DNA from: Burkholderiales bacterium
Lineage (GTDB): Bacteria > Pseudomonadota > Gammaproteobacteria > Burkholderiales > SG8-39
Direction of reading: 5' to 3'
NCBI GenBank assembly: GCA_014860445.1
Contig: JACZJT010000017.1
Coordinates: 16,596-80,595, forward strand
DNA: 64,000 bases
Made by a program: the position numbers and the translations under genes. Positions within the stretch are counted from its first letter, which is position 1; each line of letters starts with the position of its first letter. The notes beneath the pieces are model-generated. The model worked only from the letters and a program-made list of their open reading frames with translations. It made no database searches and had not been told where the DNA came from. This document shows positions 8,635 through 45,813 of this stretch, in pieces.

Positions 8635-9339
8635 ATGCACACAATGAACGCCGACCCTCAGGAACTAGCCAAGTTCAGCGACCTCGCCCACCGCTGGTGG
8701 GATCCGAGCAGCGAATTCAAGCCGCTGCACGAGATCAACCCGCTGCGACTGCGCTGGATCGACGGCATTGCGGCATTGGCGGGAAAGTCCGTGCTGGACG
8801 TAGGTTGCGGCGGTGGCATCCTGGCCGAAGCGATGGCCGTGCTCGGCGCACGCGTCAAGGGAATCGATCTATCCGAAAAAGCACTTAAAGTCGCCATGCT
8901 GCATTTGCTCGAATCGCGCGTCGACGTGAACTACGAAGAAATCAGCGCCGAAGCCCTGTCGCAACGCGACGCCGGGCAATATGATGTTCTAACCTGTATG
9001 GAAATGCTGGAACACGTCCCGGATCCGGCCAGCACGGTCGCCGCCTGCGCCAAACTCGTAAAGCCGGGCGGGCATGTGTTCTTTTCCACCATCAACCGCA
9101 ACCCGAAGTCTTATTTGTTCGCGGTCATCGGCGCCGAATATATTCTGCGCATCCTGCCGCGCGGCACGCACGACTACGCGAAGTTTCTCAAGCCTGCCGA
9201 GCTTGCGCGGCACTGTCGCACAGCAGGCCTCTCGCTGGAATCGGTGATCGGCATGAGCTACAACCCGCTGACAAAGATCTATTCGCTCAACGACGACGCG
9301 AGCGTCAATTACCTGATGCACTGCGTGCGTGATGCCTGA
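8635..9339 (+). CDS. ubiG: ubiquinone biosynthesis O-methyltransferase
   Basis: 234 aa. [33 protein letters not shown] is the UbiG N-terminal signature. It has the canonical SAM motif [14 protein letters not shown]. Confidence 0.9.
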
Positions 9340-37276: not shown

Positions 37277-38362
37277 TTAGTTGACCAGTATCTTTCCCTT
37301 GCGCACGAACGGCGGCTGCACCAGCTTGGCCTCGAGTTGCTTGCCCCGCACCGACACCTGCGCCAATGCGCCGGTTTCGACTTCCATCGGCACGCGTGCC
37401 AGTGCAATCGAGCGCTGCAATGTGGGCGAAAACGTGCCGCTGGTGACCTCCCCTACTCCGTGCGCCGTGGCGAGCTTCTGGTGGCTGCGCAGCACGCCGC
37501 CCGGTTCGGTGAGCACCAGCCCCAGCAGGCGCAAGCGCTGCGGGTGCGCGAGCAGCGCCGCCTTGCCGACGAAATCGCGCCCGCTGGCGAGATCCACCGT
37601 CCAGGCGAGCCCCGCGTCCAGCGGCGATACCTGCTCGTCCATGTCCTGCCCCCACAAATTCATCCCGGCCTCCAGGCGCAGCGTGTCGCGTGCGCCCAGG
37701 CCGCAGGGTTTCACGCCGCAGCCGAAAAGTTGCTGCCACAATGCCTCCGCGCGAGGGCCAGGGAGCATGATTTCGTATCCGTCTTCGCCGGTGTAGCCGG
37801 TGCGCGCCAGAGTCAACTCGCCTATTTGCGCGCAATGGAAGGATTGCAGCGCTTCGGTAGGCACACGCGTCCCCGGCAGCGCCTGCCATACGCGCTCGCG
37901 TGCTCGCGGCCCCTGGACGGCGATCATGGCAAGATCGCGCCGCGGCAACAATTCCGGCGCCGCACCCTGGCGCTCCTTCATGGACTCGAGCCAGGCGAGG
38001 TCGTCCTCCGCCCGGCCCGCATTCACCACCAGCCGAAAGAATTCCTCGGCGAAAAAGTACGCGATCAAATCGTCGATGACCCCGCCCGCGCGGTTGAGCA
38101 TGCATGAATAGAGCGCTCGCCCCGGGGTGCGCAATCTGTCTACATTGTTCGCGAGGCTGCGGCGGAGGAAATCGCGCGCGCCGGGGCCGCGCACGTCGAT
38201 CGCAAGCATGTGCGACACATCGAACATTCCTGCGTCGCGTCGCACCGCATGATGTTCCTCTATCTGGGAACCGTAATTGACCGGCATATCCCACCCGCCG
38301 AAATCGACCATGCGCGCGCCCAGAACTCTGTGGGCGGCGTTGAGCGGCGTTGTTTTGAGCAT
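37277..38362 (-). CDS. gcvT: glycine cleavage system aminomethyltransferase T
   Basis: 361 aa. [52 protein letters not shown] is the canonical GcvT N-terminus. Confidence 0.95.
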
Positions 38363-38380: not shown

Positions 38381-38612
38381 GAAAAAGGGGCAACGCCGGC
38401 TTTTCAGTCCGCGTCACCCCTCTGTCCCTGATACCTGAGAGATTACAGCCCTATCCCGCCCGGCTGTGCGCCCCTTCGGTGGCCGCCTGCATAGGCGGCT
38501 GCTCTCCAGAGTAACGAAAGCATCGCTTCCGTCCGACCGGTCCATTTGCCTGAGCGTTTCTGGGTATTGCGCCTTCGGCGGCCGCCTCGCAACAGCGGCA
38601 CTCTCCAAGTCG
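38381..38612 (-). promoter_or_regulatory. tandem glycine riboswitch plus terminator-type expression platform in the gcvT leader
   Basis: On the minus strand, aptamer 1 is cuuGGAGAGugcc...ggcCGCCGAAGGcGCAA...CUCAGGCAAauGGAC. Aptamer 2 is CUCUGGAGAGcagcc...ggcCACCGAAGGGGCgca...CUCUCAGGuaucaGGGACAG. They are followed by the hairpin aggggugacgcgg...gccggcguugccccu and UUUUU (38381-38421). Confidence 0.85.
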
Positions 38613-38621
38613 GTTGGATGG

Positions 38622-40136: not shown

Positions 40137-41387
40137 TTAAGCGCGCATCTCGCTCACTGAAATTTCCGTCCGAATATCGAATTCCAGCAGTCGGTGCGCT
40201 TCGCGCAAAGCGGAATCGACGGCGTCGACCGACTGGCCCTGTGCAAAGATAAACCCGAGGTAGCTTGCGCCCTCGGGTGGCGCAGATATCAGCTGGCCCG
40301 CGCCGGCCGTGATCCGGATATCGCTGATGCCGGCAACAGCCCGGGCCTGTTCAATCCCGCTCACGCCCTGGAAAAGCCCGTGCCGCGGAATCGGGATCAT
40401 CATCACGCCGTTCGCCGCGGCCTGCCTCGCCTCCGGCAACGGGAGCTGCAGCGCATCGCGCAGGATCAGTTCCTCCAGGCTCATGCCCAAGGCGGGGCGC
40501 AGCATTCTGCCGCACAGCCCGCCGATGGAACGCGCGGCAAGTTCCAGCAGCCATACGCCTTGCGCGTTCAGGCGCATTTCGGCGTGGACGGGACCGCTTT
40601 TGAGTCCGGCCAATACGCAGGCGCGCTGCACGGACTGTACGATCGCATCCTGCTGCTCCGGCGTCAGGCGCGAAGGCGTGAGATATACGGTCTCCTCGAA
40701 ATACGGGCCGTCCAGCGGATCGGGTTTGTCGATCAGCGCCAGCAGGCGCAACGCTCCGTCCTGCAGCAGCCCTTCGAGTGCATGCTCGCTGCCTGGAATG
40801 AAGTCTTCCACGATCAAGCCCAGTGCGGCTGCGTCGCGGTCGGCCTTGGCCTGGATGGCACGCACCCAGTTCACCGCTCGCGCATAAGCTTGCGGTGTGT
40901 CGGCGCGGACCACGCCGCGACTCGCGCTCAGGCGGCGCGCTTTGACCACGACCGGAAAGCGCAGCGGCTGCGGCAAGGCGTTCGCATCCGCATCGCGCGC
41001 GAGATGAAAAAAGTCCGGGCAGTTCAGACCGGCGTCGTGGAGCAAGCGTCGAAACGCGAGTTTGTCGCGGGTCAGCCGCACCGCCTCCGGCGAATTGCCT
41101 GCCAGCCCCAGGCGCTGGCGCAACAGCGCCGCCAGATCCAGGCCGCTGTCGTCCACGGCTAGCACCGCGTCCGGCCTGCGCTTGAGCGCATTCAGCACCC
41201 GGTTCAATGCGCGTTCGGGCTGATCAAAGGGTACCGATTGCATCGGACCTTTGCCCCAGGAGGGTGCAAGCCGGCGGCAGTAATTGGCGACGCTGATAAT
41301 CTGAATATCGAGTTGCCCGGCCGCCTCCAGAAAATCGTCGTTGCGATAGCCGGTGGTGGGCAGCAGCAGCAGAACGCGATTCACCAT
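40137..41387 (-). CDS. ATP-grasp domain protein of unknown substrate
   Basis: ORF trimmed to MVNRVLLLLPTTGYRNDDF, 7 nt after the radical SAM stop. The layout is a pre-ATP-grasp Rossmann-like N-terminus, then DKLAFRRLLHDAGLNCP...FPVVVKARRLSASRGVVRAD, then a C-terminal EMRLNAQGVWLLELAARSIGG Mg-ATP site pattern. Confidence 0.8.
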   Translation of the reverse strand: MVNRVLLLLPTTGYRNDDFLEAAGQLDIQIISVANYCRRLAPSWGKGPMQSVPFDQPERALNRVLNALKRRPDAVLAVDDSGLDLAALLRQRLGLAGNSPEAVRLTRDKLAFRRLLHDAGLNCPDFFHLARDADANALPQPLRFPVVVKARRLSASRGVVRADTPQAYARAVNWVRAIQAKADRDAAALGLIVEDFIPGSEHALEGLLQDGALRLLALIDKPDPLDGPYFEETVYLTPSRLTPEQQDAIVQSVQRACVLAGLKSGPVHAEMRLNAQGVWLLELAARSIGGLCGRMLRPALGMSLEELILRDALQLPLPEARQAAANGVMMIPIPRHGLFQGVSGIEQARAVAGISDIRITAGAGQLISAPPEGASYLGFIFAQGQSVDAVDSALREAHRLLEFDIRTEISVSEMRA

Positions 41388-41394
41388 CCTTGCC

Positions 41395-42858
41395 TCAAAA
41401 GCTCTGCAATTGCTGCTCGGTGGGCTCTGCACAGCAATACCAGGGCTCGGACAGGTGCGCGACGGGTTCGCCGAAATCTGCCCGCGTCAGCGGCGGCGCC
41501 TGCAGTCCCAGTGCATCGTGGGCAAGCCGCCACATCTGCTCGAAGATTTCGCTGCGCGGCCTGGCCTCCTGATCGCCTTGCGCGGCCAGGGACTGCAGCG
41601 CCTGCTGCAGGTCGTCCACGCGCGGATCCGCATGCCGCCACGGATAGCCCAGCAATTTCGGATCGAAGGCCCCGATCATTTCCGGAAAACCCTGCAATTG
41701 CAGCAACCACGAGCCTTCGGGCACGAGCAAGCGTATGCAAAGCTGAATCGCCGGCACGGCCTCCACCAGGCGCAGGCGCACCAGCGTACGCAGCAATTCG
41801 AGGTAGCTCTCGAGGCTGGTCCAGGGAGTAAACGGGACAAAGGTCGGCGCCATGGCGATGCCTGCGTCGCGGCACAGTTGTAGCGCGCGCTCGAAATCGG
41901 CCGGCGTATGGTTCTTGGCGAGGTGCTGCAGCACCAGTGCGTCGACCGACTCGACCGCCGCAGTGATGAACAGGCAGCCCGCCGACTTGAGCGCCGGCAG
42001 CAGTTCGGCGTGGGCAATGATGTGCTGGATCTTGATGGTGGCGTCGAAACTCAGTGCGGGATACTTTGCGTGCATGGCCGCAAGCACGTTCATGGCATGG
42101 GTACTGCCATTGAAAAAATCCGGGTCGCCGAATGATATATGCGCCGCGCCCGCATCGACCTGCTGCGCGATGTCCGCCATCACCACCGGCACCGGCACGA
42201 CACGGAACTTGCCCTGGTACACCGGCACCACAGGACAATGGCGGCACAGGTGCTTGCATCCCCTGCTCGCCTCGATGAACCCGAGCCGCTTCTTGCCGCC
42301 TTCCGACGTGAGCAGATGTGCGTAGCGCTCCAGCCCGGGGAGCCCGGAACGATCCGGGGTCAGAAAATCGATTTTGGCCAGATTGACCACCGGCCCGGTT
42401 TGTATGTCGCAGTTTTCACCCGCGCGCAGCCGCCGCGCAAGCTCCGCGAGTCCGGGCTCGAATTCGCCGCCCAGTATTGTTTGCACGCCGAGGCCGCGCA
42501 GCAATTGCTGGTTCATCGGCGCATACAGGCCGTACACGCACAGATGCGCATGCGGCGCGAGTGCGCGGATGCGGGGTAGCGCTTCGACCGCGATGCGCGT
42601 CGCAGTGTGCATGCCGACATAAACCGCCACCAGTCGCGCACCGGAAAGCGGAACCGAATCGAGTTGCTGCAGCGACAGGTCGATGCAGTGCACATCGAAT
42701 CCGTCCCGTTTCAGCCACGCAGCGGGTTCCGCCAGCGCGAACGGCTGCCGGCCGAGTTCATAGGGATTGATCAGCGCGACCGTGAACCGCGCCGGCGCGC
42801 CGGTTTGTGTTTCGACCCCGGCTGCTTCGATCAGGCGGGCTTCACTGCCGCTGTTCAT
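41395..42858 (-). CDS. B12-binding-domain radical SAM protein with C-terminal CCAEP tail
   Basis: 487 aa. It has an N-terminal Rossmann-like B12-binding-type domain (VALINPYELGRQPF...VAVYVGMHTA) and a radical SAM cluster motif SRGCKHLCRHCPV. The C-terminus is ...EPWYCCAEPTEQQLQSF. This tail matches what I recall as the CUAEP/CCAEP-tail radical SAM (seleno)protein family; here both codons are Cys. Confidence 0.85.
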   Translation of the reverse strand: MNSGSEARLIEAAGVETQTGAPARFTVALINPYELGRQPFALAEPAAWLKRDGFDVHCIDLSLQQLDSVPLSGARLVAVYVGMHTATRIAVEALPRIRALAPHAHLCVYGLYAPMNQQLLRGLGVQTILGGEFEPGLAELARRLRAGENCDIQTGPVVNLAKIDFLTPDRSGLPGLERYAHLLTSEGGKKRLGFIEASRGCKHLCRHCPVVPVYQGKFRVVPVPVVMADIAQQVDAGAAHISFGDPDFFNGSTHAMNVLAAMHAKYPALSFDATIKIQHIIAHAELLPALKSAGCLFITAAVESVDALVLQHLAKNHTPADFERALQLCRDAGIAMAPTFVPFTPWTSLESYLELLRTLVRLRLVEAVPAIQLCIRLLVPEGSWLLQLQGFPEMIGAFDPKLLGYPWRHADPRVDDLQQALQSLAAQGDQEARPRSEIFEQMWRLAHDALGLQAPPLTRADFGEPVAHLSEPWYCCAEPTEQQLQSF

Positions 42859-42864
42859 GCGCGC

Positions 42865-43275
42865 CTATTTCGATTTGGGGCGCTGTGCAAACTCGCCCGT
42901 CGCCGCTTCGCGGCTTGCGCCGGCCTCCTGCATGCGTTCCAGGTAGTGTTTCCACATCGAATCCTGGTTCACGCCGAGGTTGTACAGATAGTCCCAGGAA
43001 TAAAGACCGCTGTCGTGCCCGTCGGAGAACGTCAACTGTACCGCATAGGAACCCACCGGTTCGATATGCGTGAGATCCACGTTTTTCTTTCCGACCTGCA
43101 GGACCTCCTGTCCCGGCCCGTGGCCGCGCACTTCCGCCGAAGGGGAATAGACGCGCAGAAACTCGAACGGCAGCGTAAAGCACTTGCTGTCCTCGAACGA
43201 AATTTCCAGCATGCGCGATTTCTGGTGCAGTTTGATTTCCGTCGGGGAAGGGGTGGTCTTGTCTAACCCTGCCAT
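42865..43275 (-). CDS. DUF971 (gamma-butyrobetaine hydroxylase N-terminal-like) protein
   Basis: ORF trimmed to MAGLDKTTPSPTEIKLHQKSRMLEISFEDSKCFTLPFEFLRVYSPSAEVRGHG...LTFSDGHDSGLYSWDYLYNLG, which is the typical bacterial DUF971 pattern. Its stop is 6 nt before the radical SAM start. Confidence 0.8.
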   Translation of the reverse strand: MAGLDKTTPSPTEIKLHQKSRMLEISFEDSKCFTLPFEFLRVYSPSAEVRGHGPGQEVLQVGKKNVDLTHIEPVGSYAVQLTFSDGHDSGLYSWDYLYNLGVNQDSMWKHYLERMQEAGASREAATGEFAQRPKSK

Positions 43276-43591: not shown

Positions 43592-44383
43592 ATGAATTCG
43601 TGGATGATCAACGGGTTTTTTGCCATATTCGCGCTCTTGGCAGCCACAGGCTTGTTTTTCTTCGTGGTAACGCGGGGAGCGCTGGTAGTGCGCGGATTGT
43701 CGCCGGGCTCCCAGAGCGAGAAATCGCATGTATATCCGATTTACTCGAACATGCGGCTGATCAAGATGGTCGATTTTCAGCCCATTATCTCCGCGATTCT
43801 GCTGTTTCAGTACAGCCACCTGGTCTCGAAAATCGTTTCCGAACTGAAACGGATGGACCTGAAAAACAAGAAAGTGCTGATCACCTCATGCGCGTTCGGG
43901 AACGTGATTCCGCGCGTGGTGAAAGCATCGATCGATTCTGGCGCCGAACGCGTTCTGATCGCTGACATCATCCAGAACGAGCTCGTGCATGCAAAGAGCA
44001 AACTGCGCGAGTTCGGCGGGAAGATAGAGTATGTCGAGGATAACGCGACCTCGATGCAGTTGAAGGACGACGCGGTCGCCGCGAACGTCATATTCTTTCT
44101 GCTGCATGAATTGCCGCACCATCTGAAAGGACAAACTCTGGACGAGGCGGGGCGCATGCTCGCACCCGGTGGCAAGCTTTTTCTTGCGGAATTTCACCGG
44201 CCGCAGCTGTGGGTGTTGCGCGCACTGAGCTGGACTTACTTCAAAGTGTTCGAACCCCTGGGCCTGGCGCTCTGGGATACGCATGACCCGCTCCACTATC
44301 TGGAAAAGTCGGGCGGATGGACCTGCGAGCGCACCACCTTCTTTTTCGGAAACTTTCAGATCATTACCGCGACCAAACAGTAG
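43592..44383 (+). CDS. class I methyltransferase-fold protein with degenerate SAM motif I, RquA-like (candidate rhodoquinone biosynthesis protein)
   Basis: 263 aa. Motif I reads VLITSCAFG instead of h-h-D/E-h-G-x-G-x-G. The post-I acidic residue (IADI) and motif II-like FFLLHELPHH are present, and the tail HRPQLWVLRALSWTYFKVFEPLGLALW resembles my memory of RquA. GC content is visibly lower than in flanking genes. The N-terminal 30 aa are hydrophobic. Confidence 0.7.
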   Translation: MNSWMINGFFAIFALLAATGLFFFVVTRGALVVRGLSPGSQSEKSHVYPIYSNMRLIKMVDFQPIISAILLFQYSHLVSKIVSELKRMDLKNKKVLITSCAFGNVIPRVVKASIDSGAERVLIADIIQNELVHAKSKLREFGGKIEYVEDNATSMQLKDDAVAANVIFFLLHELPHHLKGQTLDEAGRMLAPGGKLFLAEFHRPQLWVLRALSWTYFKVFEPLGLALWDTHDPLHYLEKSGGWTCERTTFFFGNFQIITATKQ

Positions 44384-44431: not shown

Positions 44432-45583
44432 TCAGATCCGCAGCCAGCCGCGCTGCGCCGCGTGATGCGCCAGAATTCCGAACAACACCGCCGTACCGAC
44501 GTTCCATATCGCGAACGCCGCCGTCGCCAGCACCACGAAACGATCGGTTTTTTCCGCGCCGCTGTCGCGGCTGCCCAGGGCGAGTTGCAATCCGGCCATG
44601 AAAAGGATCACGCCGAGTATGCTGGGCGGAAACATTTTGAACACTGTGACGATCGACGCCGACAGAAACAGCCCTGCGCACAAAAGTAAGCTGCCAAGAA
44701 TGATGGACGATCCGCCCGTGCGCGCGCCGAACTGGACGTGCCCCGCCATGCCTCCCGCCCCGTGGCACATCGGTATGCCCCCGATCATGCTGGCGCCGAG
44801 ATTCATCAATCCGGTCGAGTAGGCGACCGCGCGTTCGGTGACCGGCCGGTCAGGAAACAGGCGATTGTTCTCCTCGGTGATGGCGATGTAGGCGTTGCCG
44901 AAGGTCAGCGGCAGTTGGGGAAGCGCCAGCAGGATGAACCCCGTCCAGAGATCATTCATGGAAAGTGATTCCCACGCGAAACCCGGGAGCTTGAACTCGG
45001 GTTTGAGCGCGCCAAGTTCGCTTGCCAGGCCAGGCTGGGCAATCAGCGCGATCAACGCACCGATAACGAGCAGCACCAGCATCGCGGGCATGCGCGGTCG
45101 GCCCAGCAGCACCAGCGTCAGCGCAAGCAGCGGACCCGCGATCCAGAGACTGGTGGACATCATGCGAATTCCCTGCAGCATGAACGTAAAACCCAGGCCC
45201 ATGACGACGCCCAGGAGTGCGGAGCGCGGCACCCAGTTCGCCGCACGCTTGCCCAGACCGGTCACTGCGAGGAGCAGCCACAGGAGCCCCGTCGTCAATC
45301 CTGCACCGATCACGGTCCCGGCGCCCAGGCCCGCTGCCAGCGTGCTCTGGCTGACTGCCGCAGCGCCGATGGCCTTCATCGGCTGCACCGGGAAAGGCGT
45401 GCGATAAATGGCCCCGGCCAGGATCAGTGCGACGCCGAACGCAACGAGCAGGCCGTTTGCATCCATTTTCAGTATCGATACATATGCGGCGACGAAGGGA
45501 ATCAACGTTCCCAAGTCGCCGAACGCCCCGGCCCACTCGGGGAGGTCGAAGCGATTCGGCGGACGCGCGCTCTGTTCATGCAT
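44432..45583 (-). CDS. putative sulfate/molybdate transporter (SulP/MOT1-like membrane protein)
   Basis: ORF trimmed to MHEQSARPPNRFDLPEWAGAFGDLGTLIPFV. It is polytopic and hydrophobic throughout, and the N-terminal motif resembles the molybdate/sulfate permease family. Confidence 0.6.
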   Translation of the reverse strand: MHEQSARPPNRFDLPEWAGAFGDLGTLIPFVAAYVSILKMDANGLLVAFGVALILAGAIYRTPFPVQPMKAIGAAAVSQSTLAAGLGAGTVIGAGLTTGLLWLLLAVTGLGKRAANWVPRSALLGVVMGLGFTFMLQGIRMMSTSLWIAGPLLALTLVLLGRPRMPAMLVLLVIGALIALIAQPGLASELGALKPEFKLPGFAWESLSMNDLWTGFILLALPQLPLTFGNAYIAITEENNRLFPDRPVTERAVAYSTGLMNLGASMIGGIPMCHGAGGMAGHVQFGARTGGSSIILGSLLLCAGLFLSASIVTVFKMFPPSILGVILFMAGLQLALGSRDSGAEKTDRFVVLATAAFAIWNVGTAVLFGILAHHAAQRGWLRI

Positions 45584-45813
45584 ATGCCGGGAATAATACA
45601 AGACTCCGGAATGGACAGGTGGACATGGATTGCGTCCAATCAGATTTCGCATGATGCGCATGAATGGTCAATATTTGATCAGAATCAAGCATAATGACGA
45701 TCTTTCTGCAAAGATGTCGTTGTGCCGGGGCATCGATGCCCCTTGTGTGCGCCGCCCTCAGGGATGTGCGCGTGCCCCTATTTCAAGAATTTTCACAAAG
45801 AGGAGTTCTCCCA

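Follow-up and report, generated by a model that had tools for sequence, protein, structure and literature searches.

A widespread radical SAM–ligase gene module akin to ArsL-type pathways in a Burkholderiales bacterium

ArsL and the CUAEP/CCAEP-tail family

The radical S-adenosylmethionine (SAM) enzyme ArsL cleaves SAM reductively to 5'-methylthioadenosine and a 3-amino-3-carboxypropyl (ACP) species and forms the C-As bond of hydroxyarsinothricin. It has been reconstituted with only SAM and dithionite, and the cysteines of its C-terminal RCCLKC motif, which bind arsenite, are required. Its fold and its SAM binding mode are fully canonical, yet it cleaves the other C-S bond; it acts in the biosynthesis of arsinothricin, an arsenic-containing antibiotic, and to our knowledge it is so far the one canonical-fold radical SAM enzyme known to cleave this "wrong" C-S bond of SAM. 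Here we analyse a three-gene operon from a 64,000-nucleotide stretch of a Burkholderiales bacterium contig (JACZJT010000017.1, positions 16,596 to 80,595; the window, in whose numbering positions are given below), which encodes a DUF971 protein, a radical SAM protein of the sister family of ArsL and an ATP-grasp enzyme. The operon is an ordinary member of a module that is widespread across several bacterial phyla. The sister family, the CUAEP/CCAEP-tail radical SAM (seleno)proteins, has carried its name since about 2022 and was then considered uncharacterised; its NCBIfam name is still descriptive and literature searches returned no published functional study of it, in line with a first-pass annotation of this DNA, made from the sequence alone, which knew of no substrate or product for the family.

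The radical SAM protein of the window (41395-42858, minus strand; 487 aa, stop TGA) scores 591.7 bits against the family model NF040546 (NCBIfam release 20, June 2026; cut-off 500), with its residues 27-485 aligned to model positions 1-467 of 468, so that the family membership named in the first-pass annotation holds. The second strong match is the ArsL model NF040542 alone, at 239.6 bits, and all remaining families, B12-type radical SAM models included, reach at most 38 bits. ArsL is thus the only characterised family near the protein, and this proximity is the basis of the chemistry that we propose below. A search with the protein sequence gave at least 8,000 matches at E<=1e-10, ArsL-type relatives among them. 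Compared with Pseudomonas amygdali ArsL, its identity is 30% across 401 aa; the two have a common domain architecture, can be aligned along about 400 residues and have common motifs around CxxxCxxC, DPDFFN, PTF-x-PF-x-PW and IRLL-x-P-x-GS. In both tails, a vicinal cysteine pair follows a common W-x-H-x-D-x-R-x-D-x-L motif (...PPEEGVFKRCCLKC in ArsL, ...LSEPWYCCAEPTEQQLQSF in the window). The protein nevertheless differs from ArsL: its score lies below the ArsL cut-off of 450, the RCCLKC three-cysteine tail is absent, and so is an ars gene context. Its tail, W-Y-C-C/U-A-E-P-T in the family, is without the third cysteine of ArsL and follows a linker that is about 45 residues longer. Many CUAEP/CCAEP members use selenocysteine (Sec), unlike ArsL, and the hosts and gene contexts of the family are chromosomal and of a housekeeping kind, whereas ArsL is found in resistance islands.

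The two cysteine motifs are present exactly as first annotated. CKHLCRHC (C201, C205 and C208; 42235-42258, minus strand) is the CxxxCxxC motif that provides the ligands of the radical SAM [4Fe-4S] cluster; its cysteines are invariant in a 23-sequence family alignment and the region matches PF04055. The tail motif C475-C476-A-E-P lies at 41422-41436 (minus strand), within WYCCAEPT (residues 473-480). Besides the cluster ligands, C475 is the sole invariant cysteine of the family, and C476 alternates with Sec in relatives. The protein consists of an N-terminal Rossmann-like domain, the radical SAM barrel, a C-terminal domain and a flexible tail. An AlphaFold2 model built from the same alignment has a pLDDT of 92, with values of 71-76 for the tail residues, and its top Foldseek matches in the PDB are AprD4, TsrM, OxsB, MgmA, CysS and TokK (400-510 alignment columns for AprD4, TsrM and OxsB). 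These matches point to a class B radical SAM architecture, in which, as in AprD4, a Rossmann-like domain precedes the barrel. In the PDB copies searched, neither the sequence comparison nor the fold comparison returned an ArsL structure. The B12-binding-like N-terminal domain of the first-pass annotation therefore stands as a likeness of fold, but not as a domain assignment, since the Pfam scan gave no PF02310 match at E<=0.01; the top fold match, AprD4, is moreover an enzyme that we take to be a diol dehydratase not using cobalamin. We found no evidence that the radical SAM protein uses B12, and it differs from class B cobalamin enzymes in its lack of a Pfam B12-binding match, in its scores of at most 38 bits to B12 families and in giving no sign of methyl transfer. 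Methylation or rearrangement chemistry, which had been proposed on the assumption of a B12 enzyme, gives way to the fact that the nearest characterised relative is by a wide margin ArsL, an ACP-transferring enzyme.

In 26 of 82 loci, the tail reads W-[Y/F]-C followed by an in-frame TGA and then A/V-E-P, with AEPT conserved after the TGA, and many representatives of 50%-identity clusters terminate at ...EPW[FY]C. Since the TGA falls at the second cysteine and the conserved A/V-E-P continues after it, Sec replaces the second Cys (a CU motif), and not the first Cys named in the first-pass annotation. The window itself has the codons TGC-TGT at this pair. A conserved hairpin with an AGUU(G) loop lies about 13-35 nt after the TGA (start 13-16 nt; loci L034-L082) and looks like a Sec insertion sequence (SECIS) element. 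RNAalifold recovered just 3 pairs from the region after the TGA, while a hand-specified 7-bp hairpin scores above shuffled sequences; the covariation support is modest because two sub-families use registers one base apart.

The operon, the conserved gene pair and its neighbours

Read directly from the sequence, the three genes are packed on the minus strand with gaps of 6 and 7 nt, exactly as first annotated, and constitute one real operon. The first gene encodes a stand-alone DUF971 protein of 136 aa (42865-43275; PF06155, GBBH-like_N), with AAGGAG in front of its ATG and TAG as its stop. Six nucleotides (GCGCGC, 42859-42864) separate this stop from the ATG of the radical SAM gene, and seven (GGCAAGG, 41388-41394) separate the radical SAM stop from the ATG of the last gene, which encodes an L-amino-acid-ligase-type ATP-grasp enzyme of 416 aa (40137-41387). 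We place the start of the latter at the ATG at 41387 and not at the upstream GTG at 41432, because its orthologs begin with MKRVLLLLPTT. The GC content of the operon is ordinary for the window. A sigma-70 scan gave no promoter-like sites, terminator-like sites did not exceed the shuffled expectation, and the Rfam scan returned no cobalamin riboswitch, its only match being the tandem glycine riboswitch of gcvT.

The ATP-grasp protein matches PF13535 (ATP-grasp_4, E 2.5e-27) and PF18603 (LAL_C2, E 4e-14), and its best solved relative is the L-amino acid ligase BL00235 (3VOT, E 6e-33), followed by BacD (E 1e-9). By sequence, it is an enzyme of the L-amino-acid-ligase type. The ligases BL00235, BacD, RizA and TabS have in common with it the ATP-grasp_4 and LAL_C2 domains and an E-x-A/G-x-R variant of the metal site. 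This Mg/ATP-site motif, E282-L-A-A-R286 in the window (E-x-A-x-R; 40530-40544, minus strand), carries Ala where Asn is usual in almost all of the 39 orthologs from the loci, with Gln in one. The complete Mg-ATP site seen at first is hence present, but in the form found in BacD and not as the canonical E-x-N-x-R. We considered whether the Asn-to-Ala change marks an unusual or inactive enzyme, and dropped the idea as BacD (ESAAR) and BL00235 (EVGAR) carry the same variant. BL00235 makes Met-X dipeptides such as Met-Gly and Met-Met, and in known pathways such ligases couple an unusual amino acid, anticapsin in the case of BacD, with a proteinogenic residue; tabtoxin and rhizocticin are products of further pathways of this type. 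The clade of the window ligase differs from these enzymes in that it is linked with Fe-S helper genes and a radical SAM gene, not with an antibiotic cluster; some of its orthologs occur without the radical SAM gene.

The partnership of the two enzymes was assessed in two sets of loci. The genome set comprises 80 loci with radical SAM proteins 48-78% identical to that of the window, plus Sulfurirhabdus; counts refer to those 57 loci that have 3 kb or more downstream and 1.5 kb or more upstream, and neighbours were sought within 4 kb. The metagenome set comprises 80 loci centred on ligase orthologs. The ligase gene lies beside the radical SAM gene in 42 of the 57 genome loci, always on the same strand, and the reciprocal test found a radical SAM gene adjacent in 23 of the 36 ligase-centred loci that have both flanks (34 of 51 with upstream coverage). 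The pairing singled out in the first-pass annotation is thus conserved, and it extends through Betaproteobacteria (Burkholderiales, Thiobacillus, Sulfurirhabdus), some Gammaproteobacteria, Acidobacteriota, Methylomirabilota and Dormiibacterota. Among distant members (32-37% identity, one with a CCAAPI tail variant) the order is reversed, the ATP-grasp gene preceding the radical SAM gene. The arrangement is not due to chance, and its occurrence in both gene orders across the identity range argues for functional coupling of the two enzymes. A DUF169 gene is present in seven of the 57 loci, all on the same strand; in those that include the ligase, it separates the two core genes. Literature searches returned no description of the ligase pairing or of a link to Fe-S helpers. 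Apparent fusions of the radical SAM protein in frames of 700-970 aa (L020, L036, L063, L065) were rejected as artefacts of long open frames in GC-rich DNA, the one in L065 being a wrong-frame read-through into a downstream methyltransferase gene.

Where the ligase gene is missing, the neighbours of the radical SAM gene often handle amino acids. They include an adenylation-thiolation didomain (L042), a pyridoxal phosphate (PLP) decarboxylase with an ArsP_1-family permease (L071), a PLP aminotransferase with a major facilitator superfamily (MFS) transporter (L083, Thermomicrobium), an EamA exporter coupled upstream (L029) and a methyltransferase (L065). A metagenome-assembled genome of Pyrinomonadaceae (L082, 8758-14675) has a Sec-type CUAEP radical SAM gene followed, in this order, by DUF169, CpaM (245 bits, cut-off 180), an HgcAB-like fusion (332 bits, cut-off 285) and a B12-type radical SAM gene, a possible cluster with a gene context suggestive of organometal(loid) chemistry; a published observation places DUF169 beside HgcAB-like genes in Nitrospina.

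The first gene of the operon belongs to a recurring set of small helper genes. Its DUF971 protein matches PF06155 at E 4e-32, as well as an unannotated nuclear magnetic resonance structure from Shewanella (2L6N, E 2e-38), and resembles another from Pseudomonas. The zinc site of GBBH is formed by a Cys3-His ligand set in its PF06155 domain. The window protein is without the three Cys ligands and has a single, non-conserved cysteine (C32, Gln in the Shewanella homolog), and we conclude that it is not the zinc-binding form first supposed. A reading as a maintenance factor for Fe-S clusters suits it better, since transposon fitness data label DUF971 an "FeS cluster maintenance protein" and give Mrp, BolA and YggX as its cofit partners. 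The DUF971 gene immediately precedes the radical SAM gene in 15 of the 57 genome loci and 16 of the 80 metagenome loci, all of betaproteobacterial type, so that the suggested DUF971 partnership holds in Betaproteobacteria but not elsewhere. A YggX gene (NF003817, 128 bits against a cut-off of 74) is present in 25 of the 57 genome loci, four of them same-strand, and absent from the window. It heads a YggX-DUF971-radical SAM-ligase order in three loci (L005, L010, L014) and precedes the radical SAM gene in five (L012, L019, L035, L055, L067); it lies convergently just 3' of the ligase gene in Acidobacteriota (L008), and just 3' of the radical SAM gene in L037 (at about 0.8 kb in L080). In the distant clade, an NfuA-like gene is divergent from the ligase gene (L089, L092-L095), and the radical SAM gene of L089 is closely followed, and that of L093 overlapped at its end, by a gene resembling Rv0495c, a protein that reportedly controls redox homeostasis. 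Sulfurirhabdus has a glutathione S-transferase (GST)-like gene translationally coupled after the ligase gene. DUF971, YggX and NfuA-like proteins are all linked to Fe-S cluster maintenance. Many acidobacterial loci have a common wider synteny, with aconitase upstream and glucose-6-phosphate dehydrogenase and glucokinase downstream, and so represent few independent events; because the arrangements vary in other phyla, we nevertheless regard the association with Fe-S helpers as real.

DNA-repair genes (Fpg, UvrD, UvrC, DinB) also recur by the module or the ligase gene (L053, L092, L094, L095, L133, L159). The yggX gene is known to sit with repair genes such as mutY, which may explain this recurrence.

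A proposed pathway and the explanations that compete with it

The structure of the operon, the family membership of its products, the conserved pairing and the use of Sec in relatives are solid. For the chemistry, the acceptor atom and the product, homology and gene context lead us to favour, with a probability of about 0.4, a scenario in which ArsL-type ACP transfer to a soft atom held by the tail is followed by dipeptide ligation, while DUF971 supports the Fe-S cluster. By homology to its sister family, the CCAEP-tail enzyme would work like ArsL, transferring the ACP group to a soft, nucleophilic atom carried by the vicinal residues Cys475 and Cys476 of the flexible tail (a Cys-Sec pair in roughly one of three relatives), and would release a gamma-substituted 2-aminobutyrate amino acid. 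The acceptor is probably not free arsenite, because the tail offers two ligands where ArsL has three; a two-coordinate species, such as sulfur, selenium or an organo-metalloid centre, is more likely. Family and gene context suggest that the co-translated L-amino-acid ligase would then activate a carboxylate with ATP and join this amino acid to a second one, yielding a dipeptide. Methionine is itself an ACP-S-CH3 amino acid, and BL00235, as mentioned, makes Met-X dipeptides. Finally, on the strength of gene context and the published fitness data, DUF971 may keep the Fe-S cluster loaded or repaired in an aerobic host, a task that could fall to YggX or an NfuA-like protein elsewhere.

A parallel for such a division of labour is found in ArsL loci themselves. 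Plasmid loci with ArsL in Bacillus cereus (L085, 447-1670), Alicyclobacillus (L086, 2442-3674), Priestia (L087, 2744-3967) and Pantoea (L088, 7473-8789) carry a ligase-type ATP-grasp gene together with ArsM, MFS transporters and ArsN, which suggests that some arsinothricin-type clusters make a peptide derivative. Literature searches returned no paper on arsinothricin with an ATP-grasp enzyme. The same plasmid loci also hold a gene for a GTP-binding protein, and the three from Firmicutes a gene of the carboxymuconolactone-decarboxylase family. Diphthamide synthesis offers a more distant likeness: Dph2 performs radical ACP transfer from SAM, and the ATP-dependent ligase Dph6 then acts on a carboxylate. 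However, Dph2 differs in fold and lacks a CxxxCxxC motif, Dph6 does not belong to the ATP-grasp enzymes, and the acceptor is a protein histidine.

Several observations weigh against the scenario of ACP transfer and ligation. Identity of 30% to ArsL does not guarantee the same mode of SAM cleavage, and we know of no experiment on any member of NF040546. The metalloid analogy may not carry over, because the tail has only two conserved cysteines and ars genes hardly occur: a tblastn search of 80 loci, with 14 ars-island proteins as queries, detected only an ArsM-like protein in L019 and ArsR-family proteins in L042 and L071, and apart from these matches CUAEP loci differ from ArsL loci in having no ars operons, ArsM, ArsN or ArsQ. 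No ars homolog lies near the window operon, the only one being a weak ArsM-like match at 8785-9132, about 30 kb off. The ATP-grasp protein of the window is only 21-25% identical to those of the ArsL loci, so that the parallel between them is functional and not orthologous. About a quarter to a third of loci have no adjacent partner, and ligase orthologs without a radical SAM gene within 4 kb are found beside DUF971 (L099, L108), YggX (L133, L135, L159) or DUF169 (L154); such orphan ligases beside helper genes mean that the ligase may have a role independent of the radical SAM enzyme. The Fe-S helpers, for their part, could mirror the physiological theme of the pathway and not a service to the radical SAM protein. 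It is equally conceivable that a C-terminal arm with a Cys-Sec pair acts in redox reactions or donates hydrogen atoms, as in thioredoxin reductase.

Of the variants without a radical SAM gene, L099 (3506-5233) and L108 (1759-3472) are natural ones in which DUF971 is directly followed by the ligase. We looked for a replacement enzyme in such ligase loci and rejected the idea, as the neighbours are unrelated housekeeping genes (UvrC, DinB, Lon, a pyruvate phosphate dikinase-like gene, a flavin mononucleotide-dependent dehydrogenase). The weak ArsM-like match falls within a plus-strand methyltransferase open reading frame (ORF; 8779-9132) that has weak similarity to CpaM (E 3e-4) and to ArsM-like proteins (E 8e-8).

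The most serious of the competing explanations, possible though on balance unlikely, is that the module serves Fe-S or oxidative-stress maintenance, its enzymes making a protective small molecule (a low-molecular-weight thiol or selenol, or a metal-binding dipeptide) or servicing Fe-S proteins, with DUF971, YggX and NfuA as functional co-workers instead of helpers. Such a role concerns the purpose of the product and is compatible with ArsL-like chemistry. It would account for the recurrence of three unrelated Fe-S or oxidative-stress proteins by the pair across phyla, for the retention of YggX and DUF971 neighbours by ligase orthologs even where no radical SAM gene is adjacent, for the GST-like gene in Sulfurirhabdus and the Rv0495c-like gene at the radical SAM end in L093 and L089, and for surroundings that are of a housekeeping kind and not those of a typical secondary-metabolite cluster. 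However, there is no known product of such a kind, many of the YggX cases belong to one acidobacterial clade with common synteny and thus count for fewer independent observations than loci, and the window has no YggX gene. We are more doubtful still that the enzyme performs canonical 5'-deoxyadenosyl chemistry, with the Cys-Cys or Cys-Sec tail as hydrogen-atom donor and redox relay and with the ligase coupling the modified product. The CxxxCxxC motif and the barrel are canonical, the best fold matches are AprD4, TsrM, OxsB and MgmA, the tail has two cysteines where ArsL binds arsenite with three, and Sec is in enzymes most often a redox residue. Yet ArsL is also canonical in fold and SAM binding and cleaves the other C-S bond, so that the fold matches do not discriminate between the modes of cleavage, and similarity to ArsL is far above that to any family of the 5'-deoxyadenosyl type. 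Combining ArsL-like chemistry with a protective product gives a more specific proposal that we regard as a long shot: the CUAEP/CCAEP proteins would be a second class of C-gamma-cleaving radical SAM enzymes, forming, unlike ArsL, a carbon-chalcogen bond by ACP transfer to a sulfane sulfur or selenium on the Cys-Cys or Cys-Sec arm, whereupon the vicinal residue would release a (seleno)homocysteine-type amino acid for the dedicated ligase to convert into a hitherto unknown dipeptide thiol or selenol for Fe-S and redox protection. Such a product would explain the recurrent DUF971, YggX, NfuA, GST and Rv0495c-like neighbours.

Two roles entertained in the first-pass annotation fare considerably worse. 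That the pair tailors a peptide made by the ribosome and then modified post-translationally (RiPP) is very improbable: the class B fold and weak matches to B12 radical SAM families that include RiPP methylases (E 1e-10 to 1e-3) would fit, but the ligase carries LAL_C2 and matches dipeptide ligases and not the graspetide type, neither a Pfam B12-binding match nor a cobalamin riboswitch was detected, and the gene contexts are housekeeping. A search of ORFs of 18-69 aa from -2.5 to +4 kb in 81 loci yielded no conserved small ORF, the only recurring clusters being shadow frames of YggX or DUF971 and post-Sec tails, which extends to the family the initial failure to see a precursor-peptide ORF by the operon. 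We give even less credence to the alternative of quinone or cofactor modification together with the divergent methyltransferase gene (43592-44383, plus strand), which starts 316 nt from DUF971. Its product is closest to RquA, and the arrangement is kept in the two nearest metagenome relatives (L097, L098). However, its 112 bits fall below the RquA (NF038261) cut-off of 175, and the gene occurs in none of the 57 genome loci and in 2 of the 80 ligase-centred loci; the genes for a MOT1-family transporter and an iron-containing alcohol dehydrogenase are likewise missing from the 57 genome loci. The RquA-like gene in L097 and L098 reflects local synteny and is not a component of the system.

Other features of the window and implications

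In the RquA-like methyltransferase, SAM motif I is degenerate (VLITSCAFGNV) and a hydrophobic helix is predicted at the N-terminus. Adjoining its gene, at 44432-45661 on the minus strand, lies the gene for the MOT1-family (PF16983) putative molybdate or oxyanion transporter, which is conserved only in L098. On the other side of the operon, two RF00504 aptamers (62 and 45 bits) form the tandem glycine riboswitch at 38412-38618 (minus strand) upstream of gcvT (37277-38362), which is followed by gcvH and gcvP, the expected regulation of a glycine cleavage operon.

The operon of the window belongs to a module akin to ArsL-type pathways, a good experimental target and not a solved case. The CUAEP/CCAEP proteins are a large sister family of ArsL, often with Sec at the tail that would hold the acceptor, and if they perform the chemistry of ArsL with another acceptor atom, the reach of this mechanism would go far past arsenic, probably with a new family of non-proteinogenic amino acids or dipeptides as its outcome. 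The two-gene core is directly testable, because cultured carriers exist in Sulfurirhabdus autotrophica, Polaromonas, Thermomicrobium roseum and Actinopolyspora xinjiangensis. Since DUF971, YggX or NfuA-like genes flank the module in separate lineages, it may also provide the small Fe-S maintenance proteins with a concrete biochemical client or partner.

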